Shown here: positions 31,781 through 39,176 of the stretch, piece after piece | Layout: each line of letters begins with the position of its first letter | Position numbering within the stretch: the stretch's first letter is position 1 | Source: an uncultured Methanomicrobiaceae archaeon | Lineage (GTDB): Archaea > Halobacteriota > Methanomicrobia > Methanomicrobiales > Methanoculleaceae | Length of the DNA: 64,000 nt | NCBI GenBank assembly: GCA_963826525.1 | Contig: CAWGXH010000004.1 | Coordinates: forward strand, 576,001-640,000 | Reading direction: 5' to 3' | Position numbers and translations under genes: made by a program | The notes under the pieces: generated by a model | Database searches by the model: none | What the model saw: the letters and a program-made list of their open reading frames with translations, nothing else | Told to the model about the DNA's origin: nothing

Positions 31781-31890
31781 CCTATGCCGATCTCGACTCG
31801 CCTCCCTCATTAAGGGTGCTACCTCCCTCCGCACTCCGGCACCGCAGGCCGCTCAAGCAGGAAGAGGAGATTTCCAGGCTGAATGGACTC

Positions 31891-32440
31891 CGACATACCC
31901 TCCACCAGAGCAGAGGAGGGAAGGCCTGGAGGCCTCTGGCGTTCGCGCAGGGTCCTCACCGGGGTATCGGTGCTCCCGTTGCACGCATCCCCATCGACGT
32001 GCAAGCGATCGACGCTGCATGATGCGGACGCGATATTGAACGCCGCGTTCACATCGGCGTGATCGGCGTGCCCGCAGTGCGGGCACTCAAATCGTTTTCG
32101 CTGTCTGGTGCCCATCTCTCCGCACCGGCTGCAGTGCTTTGACGTACATGCCGGGTTGACGTAGGCAACCTGCACGCCCACTTTTCGTGCCTTGGTCTCC
32201 ACCATCTTCTGGAGCTGGTAGAACAAGCCGTTATCGAGCGAAAACTCTATGGAGGCAGATTTCTTTCGCCTCCGGATCTGCCTTGTGCTGAAGAGCCTCC
32301 TTCAAAATACTGCGTTCACGGATCTTTGCCCGCCTGGCCTTCGTAGACTTCCTGAGCTTTCCGGTACCTCTCGAAGAGATTTCGGTACTTCGCGGCGGTG
32401 TGCGGAGCCTTCCTGCCAAGCTTCATCACCCTTGCCGCAG
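31891..32440 (-). mobile_element. tnpB: IS200/IS605-family TnpB remnant with right-end hairpin
   Basis: FYQLQKMVETKA...VNPACTSKHCSRCG...FECPHCGHADHADVNAAFNI; upstream fragments (VMKLGRKA) in broken frames; minus-strand CCCTCC-N11-GGAGGG-TATGTCG resembles an IS605 right end. Confidence 0.85.
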
Positions 32441-32508: not shown

Positions 32509-33180
32509 TCACAGATCGAAATACCTCCATGCTTCGTCGATAAACAACGCCTGCATCCCAAACTTCATCGGCGCGACGATATCGTTCTCATAACTGTCGC
32601 CGATGAAAAGCGTCTCTTCAGGCGCAATCTTCAGCCGTTCGAGCGCCATCATGAAGATACGCGGATTCGGTTTCTTACATCCCACATCGGAAGAAAAGAT
32701 CACAAAATCGAACCGATCGTAAAAGCCGAGCGCCCGCATTTCGAGCTCCGAGAAAACCCGCTGCCCATTCGAAACGACCCCTTTGGGAAGGTCCTGAAAG
32801 ATATCGAGCAGCCGATGGCTCTTGGTATGGGCATGCAGTCGACGGAGTGAAGCTGCCCGGAACGAACGGGCAAGCTGGACGCCAAGCTGCCTCCCGTCGA
32901 TCTCCCAGATGGCATGCTCCGCACAGATGGATGCGAAGATCTCTTCCACCCGGACATCCGGGTATCGCTCCCACGATGCCTCCATCTGCTCCTGCACGCG
33001 TTGCCTGTAGGTGTCACGCAATCGGTCGGGAGTTATCCGGACACCCTGGTAGATGAGCCAGTTACTCAGCACCTCGTAGGTCCAGGTACTCCCCTCATCG
33101 GTTTTGATGTCGATGAGGGTATCATAGCAGTCGAAGAGAACGCCCTTCACCTTTTTCACGTCAAACGGGACTTCAAGCAT
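32509..33180 (-). CDS. HAD-superfamily hydrolase
   Basis: Motif I FDCYDTL, SNG, KPNPRIF, FIGDSYEND. Confidence 0.88.
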   Translation of the reverse strand: MLEVPFDVKKVKGVLFDCYDTLIDIKTDEGSTWTYEVLSNWLIYQGVRITPDRLRDTYRQRVQEQMEASWERYPDVRVEEIFASICAEHAIWEIDGRQLGVQLARSFRAASLRRLHAHTKSHRLLDIFQDLPKGVVSNGQRVFSELEMRALGFYDRFDFVIFSSDVGCKKPNPRIFMMALERLKIAPEETLFIGDSYENDIVAPMKFGMQALFIDEAWRYFDL

Positions 33181-34103
33181 GCCTTTGCCTCCCTTATGAG
33201 ATACTCCCGATGAGAAGGCGCCCAACCGAGCCGTGCGATCCGCATATACCCAAAAGCCATAAAGAACGGCAGCACGTCAGTCACCCGGTGAAAATCAGCC
33301 TCACCTTTGCTATAGTGCCAGAGGAAATGACCGATATAGGGCTCGCTCAGTTCACCGTTGCCGAATCGAGACGCAAAGAAATGCTTCATCTCGGCACAGA
33401 GAACACCCGGATCATGGACCGGATGCGCATTCCTCCATCCGCTTTCAAAATCGATTGCATAGACCTTTCCGTCGGAAAAGAGGTAATTGGCCGGGGTTGC
33501 ATCCCCGTGAATCATAGAACCCCGGAAACCGTGAAGGAGCCCGGCATCCCACCACCTTCCAAGAAGGTGATCGAACTGCTCCCGTTGATCGCGATCCAGC
33601 CGATTCTGGGCGAGTACCCTATGAAATTGTTCGAATTCACGCTGAACGTTGCACGAACCACGAGTTCCGTCATGGAGCCTCCGGAGCAGCGCCGCAACCG
33701 ACGGGAGGCGATCATGGAGCTGATGCTCCCGCCGGAGATACTTCCGGAGCGCTACACCCTCGATGTAGTCGGTCACGACGACATTGTGAAAATTACTCCG
33801 GTACGCGATCGTCCGGGGGACAGGGATCACCTTTGAAGCCCGTTTGAGGCGCCGGTATTCGTTTTTCATCGCTTTTTCTTCATCATACCGTCTCATCACG
33901 CCTGTCGGCTCACCGAAAAACTTACCGACAACGCTGACACCCTCCCCGGAGAACGCATACCGACACACTGTATGGGATGCCGGGCTGATCCGATACACCC
34001 CTACCTTGCAGTCCGGGTTCCGTATCCTGTCGTCGAGCACCTCAATCAACCAGTCCCTGAAGCGATCGCCCGGTTTCAGCGTATTTACATACTGCTCCGC
34101 CAC
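33156..34103 (-). CDS. APH/choline-kinase-like phosphotransferase
   Basis: VVGKFF, NEY, IHGDATPANYL, AIDFE; probable GTG start near 34103; overlaps the HAD start. Confidence 0.85.
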   Translation of the reverse strand: MAEQYVNTLKPGDRFRDWLIEVLDDRIRNPDCKVGVYRISPASHTVCRYAFSGEGVSVVGKFFGEPTGVMRRYDEEKAMKNEYRRLKRASKVIPVPRTIAYRSNFHNVVVTDYIEGVALRKYLRREHQLHDRLPSVAALLRRLHDGTRGSCNVQREFEQFHRVLAQNRLDRDQREQFDHLLGRWWDAGLLHGFRGSMIHGDATPANYLFSDGKVYAIDFESGWRNAHPVHDPGVLCAEMKHFFASRFGNGELSEPYIGHFLWHYSKGEADFHRVTDVLPFFMAFGYMRIARLGWAPSHREYLIREAKACLKSRLT

Positions 34104-34570
34104 GTTCCAAAAACCTCCTCGTGATCCGTTCGCATATCGCACCCCGGTGGTCGGCAGTTTTTATTGACAGTTCCCGTCCTTCCGCCGTCCTCGGCACGAA
34201 GATGGGCGGATAGCAATGAATGCACGGCACGCATCACGCCGCAGCACCCGCATATGCAGAGCGGAGTTCTGAAGAAGAACGCACGTACCAGTCCTTGAAA
34301 ATTCGTTCCTCCCATGTTCCCCTCCTCCCGCTCACAGGAACCTTCCACCACATCAATCGACCAGGGAGTAAACCGATAACCCGGATGAGGTGTAAATACG
34401 TTTCGACCGCCGGAAGATACCGGCAACCTGCACCCGTACCGCCGGGGTGGAGCACAGAGAGGGAGAAGATGTGCCCGTGCCACCCACACATTATTAATTC
34501 ATGCTGGTATTCCTACACTACCGGTCACCCAGGAGAATATCTGACCGCCGACAGACGGGGATACAAGGCC

Positions 34571-35518
34571 ATGGACTATCACGTACTCTTTCACCTTGCA
34601 CGGGTCAAACCGCTGACAGGATGGAGCATCGGCGGATCCCTCATCGGGATCGGCGTCGCAGTCTGGCAGGTGGGGTATGCCGGCGTAGACTGGCCGCTCC
34701 TCCTTCTGGCCGTGAGCTGCGCCATTCTTCTGCAGTACGTGGCACACCCCCTCAATGATCTGATGGACCGCGACGTCGATGCAGCAGCAAAGATCCCGGA
34801 GACCGGGCGGGCCAAACCGCTCGTGGCGGGAACGGTGACAGAGGCGGAGCTGAAAGCATTCAGCGTCGTCCTGATCCTCATCGCCGTGCTGATCAGCGGA
34901 TATCTCATCCTCATACGGCCGCTTGCCCTGGGGTTTGCCCTCTTCGGGTTCTTCGCCCTCATCGGGTACAACACAGCCCCTCTGCGGCTCGCCTATCACC
35001 CCTACACCGAGTATTACCTGGCAGTTCCTGCAAACGCACTGGTCGTCGTAGCGGTGGCATATGTCGCTACGGAGAGCGTAACTCCGGTTGCAGTCGTCCT
35101 CGGCATCCTCCACGGCTTTGCAGCATCCGCATTCTTCGTCAGCATGATGTCGATGGATCTCCCCTCCGATATCCGGAACGGAAAGATCACCACTGTCGGA
35201 AGGCACCCCACCCTTCCATGGGGACTGATCTTCCCGGGGATCGGCCTGCTCATCGCTACAGCACTCATCGTCCTCGTTCTTCCCGGGGCGATGGGGAGCA
35301 GCGGCGCACTGCTGATCGCGGCGATCACCGTGCCGGTCTACCTTGTCCTCGCCGCCCTCGGCAGCCGGGTCGATGTCGTCCGCCGGGCGTATCTCCGGGG
35401 TGTCGAGGCAGCATTTGAAGAAAAAACCGGCAATCTCAGACTTTTGCAGCTTTACGTGAGCATCTTCTACTCGGTCGCCCTCCTGGCCGTCTGTGTGGGG
35501 GTGCAGCCCCATGGCTGA
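34571..35518 (+). CDS. UbiA-superfamily prenyltransferase, MenA-like
   Basis: About 9 TMs; NDLMDRDVD; GYNTAPLRLAY; DLPSDIRNGKITT. Confidence 0.85.
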   Translation: MDYHVLFHLARVKPLTGWSIGGSLIGIGVAVWQVGYAGVDWPLLLLAVSCAILLQYVAHPLNDLMDRDVDAAAKIPETGRAKPLVAGTVTEAELKAFSVVLILIAVLISGYLILIRPLALGFALFGFFALIGYNTAPLRLAYHPYTEYYLAVPANALVVVAVAYVATESVTPVAVVLGILHGFAASAFFVSMMSMDLPSDIRNGKITTVGRHPTLPWGLIFPGIGLLIATALIVLVLPGAMGSSGALLIAAITVPVYLVLAALGSRVDVVRRAYLRGVEAAFEEKTGNLRLLQLYVSIFYSVALLAVCVGVQPHG

Positions 35519-36506
35519 CGGAACGAACGGCATGATCCCATTTTCTGCGTTTCTCGCCGGAGTCAGGCCCGCTATCGACCGGCGTATCGAAGGGGTGGCA
35601 ACAGAAGACGGAACGCTTGACGAGGAGGTGATCCGCCTGCTCCTGAAGGGAAAGCGGATGCGGGCGGGGCTCCTCCTCTGCGTTCACCAGACACTCGCCA
35701 ACGGCGGCGGGGGATGGACCCGGGCGCTCGATCTTGCCTGTGCGGTGGAGCTCGCCCACGCATCGAGCCTCATCCTCGACGACATGCTCGACGAGGATAC
35801 GTCCCGCCGGGGGCTCGGCACCCTTCACCTCACACGGGGGCAGAAGCAGGCAATGCTGGATACCATCGGCGTTCTCTCCCTTCCCTATGCACTCGCCGCT
35901 CCGTACGGAGCAGAGTACGTCGCCATGCTCGCATCGACCCAGCGGAGCATGGCTTCCGGGGTGACGAAGGAGCTCTATCCCTCCCCGCACCTCCCGGCAC
36001 CGGCGCTCTACGATACCATCATCACCCAAAAAACCGGCCGTCTCTTCTCGCTCACCGCAGCCTGGGGCAGTATGGCTGCAGGTCAGAGCAGCAGTATGAC
36101 GGATGCGTTTGCCCGGTACGGCCTCCGGGTCGGGAGGGCGATGCAGATCGCCGACGATATTGCCGATCTGTCCCTGATCGTCTCGGGCAGGAAAGAGAGC
36201 GGGTTCGGGTCGGAGATCCTTCTCCTGCGCCGTGTCTGCGGCGACGGATACTGCACCGAACTTCTGCAGGAGAACAGGGGAAAACACCTCAAGCCCGTCC
36301 AGGTGCACCGTCTCTGGTCGACCGAGGGGATCGAACAGGCACTGACGGCGGCTCTTGACGCCGAGGTGACGGGATCGATGGAGAGCATCCGGCAGTTCCC
36401 GGAACGGGAGGTCTTTGTCCGGGCGGCCAGAGAGATCGTCGCCATGGTGCTTCGGGAGGAGACGCCCGGAGAACGGTTGCCGGAAACACTGGAAAACAGG
36501 ATATAA
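35511..36506 (+). CDS. trans-Polyprenyl diphosphate synthase
   Basis: GKRMR, VELAHASSLILDDMLD (FARM), RRG, KTG, QIADDIAD (SARM); overlaps the UbiA gene end by 8 nt. Confidence 0.88.
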   Translation: MADGTNGMIPFSAFLAGVRPAIDRRIEGVATEDGTLDEEVIRLLLKGKRMRAGLLLCVHQTLANGGGGWTRALDLACAVELAHASSLILDDMLDEDTSRRGLGTLHLTRGQKQAMLDTIGVLSLPYALAAPYGAEYVAMLASTQRSMASGVTKELYPSPHLPAPALYDTIITQKTGRLFSLTAAWGSMAAGQSSSMTDAFARYGLRVGRAMQIADDIADLSLIVSGRKESGFGSEILLLRRVCGDGYCTELLQENRGKHLKPVQVHRLWSTEGIEQALTAALDAEVTGSMESIRQFPEREVFVRAAREIVAMVLREETPGERLPETLENRI

Positions 36507-36539
36507 ATAACCATCCGATCAACGTGAGAAGGAGAAATT

Positions 36540-36725
36540 ATGCCTGTCGTAACCATACAGTTATCAAAGGGTCGGACGCTCGAACAGAAGCGGCAGCTGG
36601 CGGAAGAGATCACGAACACGATCGTGAATACCCTCGGGGTCGACCCGAGCTGGGTCACCATCCTGATCAACGAGCTCGATCGTGAGAACATTGCAAAATC
36701 CGGCAAGCTCCTCAGCGAGTCGTAA
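36540..36725 (+). CDS. 4-oxalocrotonate tautomerase family protein
   Basis: 61 aa, catalytic N-terminal Pro (MPVVTI), GRTLEQKRQL. Confidence 0.9.
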   Translation: MPVVTIQLSKGRTLEQKRQLAEEITNTIVNTLGVDPSWVTILINELDRENIAKSGKLLSES

Positions 36726-36825: not shown

Positions 36826-37174
36826 ATGGCACGCGACCTTGACGAGAGAGACCTTGCGATACTCAGAAAACTCGCTCCCGAGTACCGAGGGAGTCCTCTG
36901 TCCCGAGTCGGGGCACGCATTCCACTCGATACTCCCCCCGGTCTCGAATCACATCGCAGAAGACGACGCAGACTTCGCCGGGCGGATAAGCCGCCTCTCT
37001 GAGGATGACTGGCACTACCTCACCGAGCAGATCCTGAAGGGGCGCGAGAGCCTCTCGTGCATGCCCGAAGAGGACGTCGATCTGGTACTCCGGCAGATCA
37101 CGACGCACGTCTCGGAAGAGACCGCCGATCGGGTCAGAAGACTCTACCACCTCTCTGAGTGCGGGATGCTGTAG
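36826..37174 (+). CDS. Conserved hypothetical protein, 1 frameshift near 36885
   Basis: MARDLDERDLAILRKLAPEY joins EGVLCPESGHAFHSILPPVSNH after removing one base. Confidence 0.65.
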
Positions 37175-37297: not shown

Positions 37298-37780
37298 ATG
37301 GAACTATCTGAACAGCTCACGAGCGTGCCGGGAATCTTGCGGCCGTTCAAGGCGTTCATAACCGAGGCCGGTCTTGCCGATGGCGACCAGATCGCCTACT
37401 ACGGCTGCCCCGGTACCTGTACGCCGTTTATCGAACTGCTTGCTTTCTCTATCCGCGACCTGCTGCTCTCCCAGGTCTACGTACCCTACGTGGACGAACT
37501 CGGCGCCCGGAGCCTCAGGACGGTGACGGAGGTGGGGATGCAGGTGAGTGGGGAGCCTGCGACCGTCGATCCGGCCGTGATCGTCCTGATGGGGGGGTTG
37601 TCCATGCCGAACGTCCCCGTCTCCCGCGATCAGGTGTTGCAGGTCGTCGAGGCACACCAGCCATCTGCTCTGGTCGGCGTCTGCTTCATGAAGATGTTTG
37701 AAAAGATGGGATGGCTCGAGTCGTTCGACTTCGACCTCATCATCGACGCCACGATCGACCCGGTCAACATCTGGAGGTGA
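37298..37780 (+). CDS. DUF2124 family methanogen protein
   Basis: YYGCPGTCTPFIELLAFSIR, VLMGGLSMP, GVCFMKMFEK.GW, FDLIIDA. Confidence 0.85.
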   Translation: MELSEQLTSVPGILRPFKAFITEAGLADGDQIAYYGCPGTCTPFIELLAFSIRDLLLSQVYVPYVDELGARSLRTVTEVGMQVSGEPATVDPAVIVLMGGLSMPNVPVSRDQVLQVVEAHQPSALVGVCFMKMFEKMGWLESFDFDLIIDATIDPVNIWR

Positions 37781-39176
37781 CCGGAGCACCGGCGGTGCAC
37801 CGGGCTGCCGGCCGCCCTATCTTCCGCAGGGTGAACCGGAATGCTGCTCCCGCTTCCGGCCTGCCGGTCACCCGGTCGTCAGCCCGGATCGTGCCGCCGT
37901 ACCGCTCGACAAGCATCCTTGCGATGAAGAGGCCGAGCCCTTTGCCGCTCTTCGTCGTCCTCCCTCGTGTAAAACGGGAGAATATGCGTGACTTCATCGG
38001 ATTGGGGACACCGGGGCCGGTGTCCTCTACCGTGACCTCGACATCCTCGCCGTCCTCGGCGACCTTCACGGAGACCCGCACGTCCGGGGCACCGAACTTG
38101 AGGCTGTTTCCGATGAGGTTTGTGAAGACCTCCGGAAGGAGGTCATCCGCAGCAACCAGAACCGGAGTTCCGTCGTAGACGATATCTGCATCCGGATGGT
38201 GGCTGATCTCGGCTCTGATGATCTCGTCGAGGTCGACCGTCTGCAGGGTGCAGTCCTGCGACCGGAGACGCCGGATGGTGGAGACATTCTGGATTATCTC
38301 GATGCTCCGCTGTATGCCGGAGCGGAGCTTCCTGACCATATCCCGATCCTGACCGTTCAGGGTCTCGACGAGCAGGTCACTGTACCCGAGGGCGACGGCG
38401 TTGGCGTTGTTGATGTCGTGCGCCATGATATCCAGGTAGAGATTGGCGTCCTCGTTTGCGACCCGCAGCGCCTCCTCAGCCTGTATCCGGTCGGTAATAT
38501 CCTTCCCCGAGCAGAGGAAACCGGTGATCGCACCCGTTTCGTCACGAAGAGCGCTGTCCTGCCACAGGACGGTATACTCCTTCCCCTCCCGGGAGACGAT
38601 CGGCATCTCCTTCTGATCGAATGCCGACGCATCCCCCGCCATGATGCGGGCAAACGCCTGCCGGGCTTCTTCTCGGTGCCGCTCAGGAACGACAGTGTCG
38701 AACCAGTTCTTTTCGATAAGTTCGGCCTCGGAGAACCCGAGCAGTTCGGATCCGCGCCGGTTGACGAGCCCGATCGTCTGATCGGTGTTGATGATGACGA
38801 GAAGGACGCCTGCGGTATTGAGAATTGTCTGGATACGATCCTTCTCGCGCTGGATCGTCCTCTGCTGACCCTTGAGCTGGTCGCTCAAGGTGGCAACGAC
38901 GAATGCGATGACGATGAACATTAGTGCCCGGAAGTAGTCGTTGAGCGTCAGATCTTCCGGCCTGAAGAGGAGGCTGCTCGCGACGACGAGCCCCGCGAGG
39001 GACATGGCAACGAGGATACTCTTCTTTTCCCACCACAGGGCGCTGATAATGATGGGTATGTAGAAGAAGTGCGAGAAGACCGTGCCCAGCATCAGTACAG
39101 CATGGAAGTAATACGTCAGGAATACCGAAACGGTCAGCAGGACGGCCATGATTAGTACACGGTACTTCTCGTGCAT
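37764..39176 (-). CDS. Membrane PAS-domain sensor histidine kinase
   Basis: N-terminal TMs, PAS/PAC ending in DIT, H-box LYLDIMAHDINN, NLIGNS, DTGPG, GKGLGL. Confidence 0.9.
   Translation of the reverse strand: MHEKYRVLIMAVLLTVSVFLTYYFHAVLMLGTVFSHFFYIPIIISALWWEKKSILVAMSLAGLVVASSLLFRPEDLTLNDYFRALMFIVIAFVVATLSDQLKGQQRTIQREKDRIQTILNTAGVLLVIINTDQTIGLVNRRGSELLGFSEAELIEKNWFDTVVPERHREEARQAFARIMAGDASAFDQKEMPIVSREGKEYTVLWQDSALRDETGAITGFLCSGKDITDRIQAEEALRVANEDANLYLDIMAHDINNANAVALGYSDLLVETLNGQDRDMVRKLRSGIQRSIEIIQNVSTIRRLRSQDCTLQTVDLDEIIRAEISHHPDADIVYDGTPVLVAADDLLPEVFTNLIGNSLKFGAPDVRVSVKVAEDGEDVEVTVEDTGPGVPNPMKSRIFSRFTRGRTTKSGKGLGLFIARMLVERYGGTIRADDRVTGRPEAGAAFRFTLRKIGRPAARCTAGAPVTSRC

Follow-up and report, generated by a model that had tools for sequence, protein, structure and literature searches.

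What does a cytochrome-free methanogen make with a prenyltransferase and a prenyl synthase that stand apart from those of its core lipids? The question is raised by a 64,000-nucleotide stretch of DNA (the window) from an uncultured Methanomicrobiaceae archaeon (assembly GCA_963826525.1, contig CAWGXH010000004.1, positions 576,001 to 640,000 of the forward strand), in which a gene for a UbiA-superfamily prenyltransferase is followed by one for a trans-isoprenyl diphosphate synthase. An earlier note on this DNA proposed that the two genes, together with a tautomerase gene behind them, make a prenylated aromatic of C25 or longer, such as a redox carrier or a lipid. The reading that we favour, with a probability of about 55%, is that the pair is a reduced copy of an archaeal module consisting of UbiA, a flavoprotein resembling geranylgeranyl reductase (GGR) and a synthase resembling geranylfarnesyl diphosphate synthase (GFPPS), that the module makes an accessory prenylated membrane compound, and that it is eroding in this lineage.

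Two genes beyond the core-lipid set

The three genes lie on one strand in the order UbiA, synthase, tautomerase, as the earlier note described, and open reading frame (ORF) calls and translations agree on this. The first encodes a UbiA-superfamily membrane prenyltransferase of 315 amino acids (34571..35518, +; PF01040, 77.2 bits against a cut-off of 34.2), and the second a trans-isoprenyl diphosphate synthase paralogue in an ORF that opens with GTG (35493..36506, +; PF00348, 109.7 bits against a cut-off of 27). As part of the favoured reading, we predict that 34571-36506 forms a two-gene operon.

The host genome (3.06 Mb in 16 contigs, 87.6% complete) gave 2 matches to PF00348 and 8 to PF01040 by profile search. 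At other loci it holds a digeranylgeranylglyceryl phosphate (DGGGP) synthase, scoring 333.7 against the NF009521 cut-off of 296, and a second synthase (PF00348, 229 bits) whose best model is IdsA_Meth at 314 bits. Since a DGGGP synthase and an IdsA-like synthase are encoded elsewhere, the UbiA/synthase pair is additional to the core-lipid set.

A third partner gene

We compared three sets of loci: 17 in named metagenome-assembled genomes (MAGs), 13 of them labelled Methanomassiliicoccales; those of other Methanomicrobiales genomes; and 66 metagenome loci. The named-MAG loci hold the closest UbiA relatives found by that contig search, at 39-47% identity. The synthase directly follows UbiA in 13 of the 17, and two of the four misses are at a contig edge. 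Ahead of the pair, 12 of the loci carry a gene for a flavoprotein (P0135) and 9 one for a membrane protein (P0136); a Pfam search gave no match for either protein. The UbiA clade to which the window enzyme belongs is present in 29 of 201 sampled Methanomicrobiales genomes, the host included, and UbiA is followed by a P0135-type flavoprotein in 18 of the 19 loci examined in other Methanomicrobiales. Pairwise comparison of the Methanomicrobiales flavoprotein with P0135 gave 33% identity at 3e-46 and 32% at 1e-51. One genome, G067, carries UbiA, the GGR-like gene and the synthase consecutively, in that order.

The 66 metagenome loci, all containing the synthase family, divide into 28 of a cassette type, 29 of a Methanoculleus type and 9 that are too short to assign. 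The GGR-like flavoprotein is present in 25 of the 28 cassette-type loci, and UbiA in 13 of the 16 that have at least 2.3 kb of upstream sequence. The 29 Methanoculleus-type loci have neither UbiA nor the flavoprotein. P0135 displays a Rossmann GxGxxG motif together with YxWxFPx7GxG, which we take to be a geranylgeranyl reductase motif; the catalytic-domain model GGR_cat (PF22578) scores weakly in the family (21.7 and 18.3 bits, cut-off 27) and has no match in P0135 itself. The recurrence of UbiA and the synthase with this flavoprotein indicates that the real unit is UbiA, reductase and synthase, and the GGR-like flavoprotein is thus a third partner that the earlier note had overlooked. The other recurrent neighbours of the cassette, as classified by Pfam, are a CDF transporter, a TPR/AAA regulator and small ORFs without a match, none of which points to an acceptor pathway.

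Some features of individual cassettes are also recorded. In Methanomassiliicoccales-type cassettes, P0136, of about 227 residues, has the GGR-like gene on one side and UbiA on the other (L037:5100-5783 and eight more loci); at L123 and L124 it lies between reductase and synthase, with no UbiA detected, and it is also found at L181. In 7 of 24 cassette loci the synthase is immediately followed by an ORF of 115-165 residues without a Pfam match (L169:4234-4728, L174:4965-5345, L185:5166-5543 and four others). In one Methanomassiliicoccales MAG, a second, inverted UbiA-synthase copy lies beside the intact pair in several tblastn fragments (L038:8700-10455), and looks like a decayed duplicate of the cassette.

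Loss of UbiA in close relatives

Neither the flavoprotein nor a P0136-type membrane protein was found in the host genome with three queries (genome 87.6% complete). The synthase family is present in both of the other genomes of the same genus (g1) and in 32 of 37 genomes of a neighbouring genus (g2), while a profile search for the UbiA clade found no member in any of the 37 g2 genomes. The named homologues of the synthase come from Methanoculleus species, and g2 is presumably Methanoculleus. At the three g2 loci that we examined, a kinase gene abuts the synthase directly.

Within the host's own genus, UbiA has been reduced by deletion. G110 keeps a 159-residue in-frame remnant that lacks residues ~105-260, including the second Asp motif, and G166 an in-frame remnant that lacks residues ~49-257, including both Asp motifs; the two deletions differ in their boundaries. 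The intact exceptions are the window copy and a homologue 72% identical to it. The module is decaying in this lineage, with close relatives losing UbiA, a circumstance that the earlier note had also overlooked.

A MenA-like prenyltransferase outside the named branches

The window UbiA has the hallmarks of an intact enzyme. Its Asp-rich motifs, N62-D63-x2-D66-x3-D70 and D196-x3-D200, are complete; the family alignment has no variation at N62, D63, D66, D70, D196 or D200, and D66, D196 and D200 stay invariant over 118 sequences. All 62 family-invariant columns are retained. The AlphaFold2 (AF2) model has a predicted local distance difference test (pLDDT) score of 90.6 and adopts the UbiA fold, with Foldseek matches to AfUbiA (4tq4, template modelling score 0.66-0.71), DGGGP synthase (6m31), UBIAD1 (8djk) and ApUbiA (4od4). 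Single-sequence and profile searches of the Protein Data Bank (PDB) with UbiA returned nothing meaningful.

The earlier note had called this protein MenA-like, and we asked how far the label extends. No NCBIfam model is reached at its cut-off, the best being PRK05951 (46.1 against 239). An identity as MenA itself was rejected (TIGR00751, 25.1 against 102.15; PRK06080.1-1, 19.8 against 277), as was one as DGGGP synthase, whose best model is PRK12884 (28.9 against 269). The family is small: out of 1.84 billion representatives, an 11-member profile retrieved only 34 with E<=1e-30 and 566 with E<=1e-3. When the query and 117 full-length matches were compared with models of the superfamily, 90 of the 118 went to MenA, 17 to DGGGP synthase and 4 to heme o synthase. 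In a 165-row tree the query falls in a 118-row clade with a support of 100 in the Shimodaira-Hasegawa-like approximate likelihood ratio test (SH-aLRT), and E. coli MenA in a separate clade of 40 rows. The phylogeny that the earlier note had proposed as a check thus gives no grouping with DGGGP synthase, and the clade is apart from UbiA and CyoE as well. Eight representatives of the 118-row clade had no NCBIfam match at 1e-20. By hhalign, the clade scores 178.9 (E 2.5e-25) with MenA-type profiles against 106.6 (E 9.1e-15) with a DGGGP synthase-type profile of only 4 rows.

By profile reach and hhalign the enzyme is nearer to MenA than to DGGGP synthase, yet it lies outside both. MenA is the nearest named branch of the superfamily and has the Asp-rich motifs in common with the window protein, which differs in its separate clade, its score below the TIGR00751 cut-off, and a genome in which no known route to 1,4-dihydroxy-2-naphthoate was found. 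We describe it as a predicted MenA-like prenyltransferase that is neither MenA nor DGGGP synthase. The ESM Atlas only repeats 'UbiA / MenA-family', and several homologues are labelled MenA by JGI.

The other UbiA paralogues of the host genome (L005-L010) were considered as members of this clade and set aside as unrelated by comparison. Two of these PF01040 matches are interrupted: L007 (C4:338756-339313) has an in-frame TGA and a weak MenA-type similarity over its C-terminal part only, and L005 (C3:251795-252286) has an in-frame TAG. They may be broken UbiA paralogues, not related to the clade studied here.

A synthase with a long-chain signature

The synthase carries the motifs GKRMR, the first aspartate-rich motif (FARM) DDMLD followed by RRG, then KTG, and the second aspartate-rich motif (SARM) DDIAD. 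The strings HASSLILDDMLD and IVSGRKESGFGSEIL that the earlier note quoted occur in its translation, and the Ser that was said to precede the FARM is there: positions -5/-4 before DDMLD are Ser-Ser. In alignment, the synthase family has S or A and then S at these positions, GFPPS has A,S, E. coli IspB has A,T, and the host's canonical IdsA-like enzyme has F,T. The premise that core-lipid synthases have Phe at -5 and that small residues allow longer products is borne out here by the host's own canonical enzyme (Phe-Thr) and by the Ala-Ser of Methanosarcina GFPPS. The likeness of the post-SARM segment to the latter, which the earlier note had suggested, is also real: the loop is ~5 residues shorter than the canonical one, and a K-ES-x-F-x-SE-x-L pattern is common to both. 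These alignments included 12 GFPPS from Methanosarcinaceae genomes (7 over the equivalog cut-off) and 14 GFPPS-like sequences. FARM, SARM, GKRxR, RRG and KT are invariant in a 39-row family alignment, Methanoculleus members included, and the His at -1 of the FARM is replaced throughout the family by L, I, V or M.

Membership of the GFPPS group itself did not hold. No NCBIfam equivalog is reached (best 85.1 against 450; GFPS_Meth, NF040627, 80.4 against 600). In a tree of 88 sequences, including the 12 GFPPS, the 14 GFPPS-like sequences, canonical archaeal enzymes and E. coli IspA and IspB, the synthase lies in a clade of its own of 52-53 rows (SH-aLRT 99) on a stem of 1.06 + 1.34 changes per site, and the GFPPS clade (26 rows, SH-aLRT 99) and the canonical clade are both separate from it. 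A quick tree under the site-heterogeneous posterior mean site frequency (PMSF) model gives the same three-way split, and because of this split a sister relationship to GFPPS depends on the root. The best PDB sequence match is 3ipi (77.8 bits, the next 59.2), which is ~90% identical to Methanosarcina GFPPS. The AF2 model (pLDDT 89.4) has mostly medium- and long-chain synthases as its top structural matches, by small margins; the structure search confirmed the folds of both UbiA and the synthase and did not separate subfamilies.

Methanosarcina GFPPS (NF040627; 3ipi) is hence the known enzyme to which this one is most usefully compared. Both are second, non-core trans-synthases in a methanogen with small residues at -5/-4 and a short post-SARM loop. 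The window synthase differs in its long-stemmed separate clade, in L/I/V/M rather than His before the FARM, and in a longer C-terminal part (~330 against 295 residues). Enzymes of the window type are paired with UbiA or the reductase, whereas GFPPS was unpaired at the four loci examined. We consider the long-chain signature read from these alignments to be real, and from it we infer a product that is longer than C20, probably C25 or more.

What the module may make

The mechanism that we propose is as follows. The synthase, with all condensation motifs and the signature of a deep pocket, would build an all-trans prenyl diphosphate longer than C20 and probably of at least C25. UbiA, by means of two Mg-binding Asp motifs, would act in the membrane and pass this chain to an acceptor that is produced in any case, for which a small phenol or aromatic acid is the most likely candidate. 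In complete modules the flavoprotein would saturate one or more double bonds. The product would be an accessory prenylated membrane compound, neither a core lipid nor an indispensable electron carrier; that it is accessory follows from the patchy distribution and repeated loss of the module. The module itself, which lacks curated models, is real and eroding, and a prenylated product is likely.

Several points weigh against it. The 165-row tree leaves the UbiA clade, MenA and DGGGP synthase in an unresolved polytomy, and the aromatic acceptor is guessed only from the distant likeness to MenA. The cassette has no conserved neighbour that would make or tailor a ring. Some C20 enzymes, the type III geranylgeranyl diphosphate synthases, likewise have small residues at -5/-4, so a chain longer than C20 is not proven, and the very long stem together with the loss of His at -1 of the FARM means that the chemistry of the synthase could differ from plain elongation. 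Three families of the sample (f3-f5) have UbiA and the reductase without a window-type synthase, which may therefore be accessory to the module. At 87.6% completeness, the missing reductase gene is no proof of absence from the host. The product, its chain length and its acceptor are predictions.

A more specific version of the proposal is that the module makes an undescribed, partly saturated prenylated aromatic of at least C25 in methanogens that lack cytochromes, with a patchy occurrence among Methanomicrobiales and also in environmental Methanomassiliicoccales. There it could serve as a lipophilic redox carrier or membrane antioxidant, possibly as the long-postulated carrier 'X' of the Fpo-like complex, and the window copy would represent a late stage of its loss. 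We regard this version as doubtful. The redox-carrier reading of the earlier note, taken as a lipophilic, quinone- or methanophenazine-like carrier of at least C25 in the membrane electron transport of cytochrome-free methanogens, we judge to be distinctly improbable. A MenA-like UbiA and a GFPPS-like synthase would suit it, and the partner reductase is reminiscent of the enzymes that reduce the prenyl side chain of menaquinone. In a review passage (PMC6770870), methanophenazine has five prenyl units and is specific to Methanosarcinales, and a passage of Holmes et al. 2018 (PMC6315138) states its pathway to be unidentified. If the UbiA enzyme belonged to such a pathway one would look for it there, yet a profile search found the clade in 0 of 37 genomes of family f7, which holds GFPS_Meth equivalogs and is taken to be Methanosarcinaceae; across the phylum sample it turned up in no more than 8 of 301 genomes. 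The GFPPS loci of four GFPPS-clade genomes (Methanosarcina and relatives) had no UbiA or GGR-like gene within ~9 kb on each side. Searches for MqnA/D (PF02621) and MenB (TIGR01929) gave 0 matches in the host and in five of five 99%-complete UbiA-bearing Methanomicrobiales, with positive controls, and no HdrE/NarI-type cytochrome b was found in the host, while the M. acetivorans control was positive. The host does have a UbiD homologue, as does M. jannaschii, and one is expected for the archaeal mevalonate route rather than for quinone synthesis. UbiA is moreover dispensable: within the genus it has been deleted in frame twice, independently, and g2 gave no match. From the failure to find MqnA/D, MenB or the cytochrome b and from the rarity of the clade we conclude that a pathway of the methanophenazine or menaquinone type, and with it a redox-carrier role of the product, is unsupported.

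The module could alternatively be a second ether-lipid set, prenylating a glycerol-phosphate-based acceptor to give a variant core or minor lipid such as a C25 'extended' archaeol. Its three enzymes are of exactly the types that assemble archaeal lipids, the classes of the core trio of geranylgeranyl diphosphate synthase, DGGGP synthase and geranylgeranyl reductase; genes for head-group or ring synthesis are not among its conserved neighbours; the structural matches of UbiA include the DGGGP synthase of M. jannaschii (6m31/7bpu); and the GFPPS-like signature suits C25 chains. Nevertheless, all three enzymes are distant paralogues of the core trio, UbiA is nearer to MenA-type than to DGGGP synthase-type profiles, its phmmer score with the host DGGGP synthase is zero, and that bona fide enzyme is already in the genome. 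Patchy, dispensable and repeatedly lost, the module does not behave as a core pathway would, and to our knowledge C25 ether lipids have not been reported for these orders, although no search was made for such reports. We consider a second ether-lipid set to be unlikely. We are similarly sceptical that UbiA is an intact relic without a working pathway, leaving the synthase to act alone, as in the neighbouring genus, to provide other enzymes with a longer prenyl diphosphate, or to work with the tautomerase or with a neighbouring kinase/HAD pair. The synthase is indeed kept where UbiA is absent or truncated (the 32 of 37 g2 genomes and both other g1 genomes), its catalytic residues are invariant family-wide, Methanoculleus included, its order with the tautomerase is kept in 14 of 17 family loci, and the reductase partner was not found in the host genome. 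The window UbiA itself, however, has no look of decay: it keeps every family-invariant residue at 72% identity to its nearest intact homologue, and its translational coupling to the synthase is preserved. The synteny of the whole neighbourhood, moreover, lowers the weight of tautomerase and kinase adjacency.

The favoured reading, that of an eroding module with an accessory prenylated product, keeps some parts of the earlier interpretation and drops others. The pair is extra, UbiA lies outside DGGGP synthase and the synthase has a GFPPS-like signature; the role of the tautomerase, the carrier and membership of GFPPS are unsupported.

Relation to published genes

Passages of Borrel et al. 2014 (PMC4153887) describe, for Methanomassiliicoccales, a MenA-annotated UbiA and an additional synthase whose residue at -5 is small, with no head-group genes, and make from them the same argument for a carrier, which they call putative. 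Their 'liposoluble electron transporter' genes follow the logic considered here, an extra synthase and UbiA in a cytochrome-free methanogen. As given there, the synthase lies beside Fpo-like genes and ubiA beside ubiE, in host-associated species, whereas the module described here is that of environmental Methanomassiliicoccaceae, where a reductase and a membrane protein accompany UbiA-synthase, and is likened to those genes by description only. The supplement of the same paper, in the passage concerned, limits long-chain-type prenyl synthases to archaea with membrane-soluble electron carriers; the synthase family seen here in a genus without cytochromes, in 32 of the 37 genomes sampled, does not fit this rule. 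Titles and abstract openings in the literature yielded no description of the module in Methanomicrobiales.

None of the three enzyme families of the module has a curated model or an assigned product. A product, if found, would be a further lipid or cofactor of methanogen membranes, and would provide a concrete test of the old question of whether Methanomassiliicoccales have a lipophilic carrier. The full cassette, UbiA with synthase, the synthase alone and the in-frame deleted UbiA form a natural series that lends itself readily to comparative lipidomics.

The tautomerase and the surroundings of the operon

The third gene of the cluster as proposed in the earlier note encodes a 61-residue protein of the 4-oxalocrotonate tautomerase family (36540..36725, +; PF01361, 57.4 against 22; TIGR00013, 61.1 against 56.9). 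It begins exactly 33 nt after the synthase stop, the spacing that had been noted, and starts MPVV, with Pro directly after the initiating Met. It shares with known members of that family TIGR00013 and the N-terminal Pro, and a link to the prenyl module was not found outside the synteny of this archaeal family. A tautomerase follows the synthase in 14 of 17 loci from genomes of the same family. Among metagenome contexts with downstream sequence, it does so in 21 of 26 of the Methanoculleus type and 0 of 20 of the cassette type, and there was no match for it in the 17 named-MAG loci, mostly Methanomassiliicoccales. Being tied to Methanoculleus-type contexts only, it is probably no part of the pathway, and its place in the cluster as originally proposed is lost. 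It would be a neighbour acquired in family synteny. Since the whole neighbourhood is syntenic in the family, the adjacency of the tautomerase, and of the kinase described below, carries little functional weight.

The UbiA-synthase overlap that the earlier note reported is present if the synthase starts at GTG 35493 (26 nt) or at ATG 35511 (8 nt); from ATG 35532 there would instead be a gap of 13 nt after the end of UbiA. The recorded 331-residue protein begins at ATG 35511, and the true start is likely to be either ATG 35511 or ATG 35532. The UbiA start at 34571 agrees with 9 of 10 aligned homologues. An A/T-rich, TATA-like stretch (attattaatt; 34490..34499, +), read directly from the sequence, lies ~70 nt 5' of this ATG in the 428-nt gap to a divergent kinase gene, and is a possible archaeal promoter element of the operon; the alternative UbiA starts at 34220 (a longer ORF) and 34469 (the recorded one) would span it. 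A sigma-70 promoter scan returned 0 sites, and 3 terminator-like sites were found where 1.8 were expected, a scan that is uninformative for an archaeon. No RNA dataset was listed for the locus, and three soil DNA runs, all from one study, contain small shares of its words.

The divergent gene is APH-family kinase-like (33156-34142, -) and overlaps a HAD hydrolase gene (32509-33225, -) by 70 nt. Almost every locus of the same family has the pair next to the synthase, with or without UbiA; prenols are possible substrates for a kinase and phosphatase in such a position. On its far side, a 135-residue ORF with two CxxC pairs (31819-32226, -) has counterparts of 53-87% identity at the same position in related genomes. 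It looks like the putative C-terminal zinc-ribbon part of a TnpB/OrfB-type transposase, and as it is kept at the same place in relatives it is no recent insertion.

Downstream of the tautomerase, a 111-residue ORF without a Pfam match (36839-37174) precedes a gene for a DUF2124 protein (37298-37780, +; 164 bits), and both hold this position throughout the family. A membrane PAS histidine kinase gene (37764-39176, -), 1.2 kb downstream, is syntenic family-wide regardless of the presence of UbiA, and its association with UbiA looks like mere synteny; in 5 of the 17 named-MAG loci, genes like those for histidine kinases occur no more than 6 kb away.

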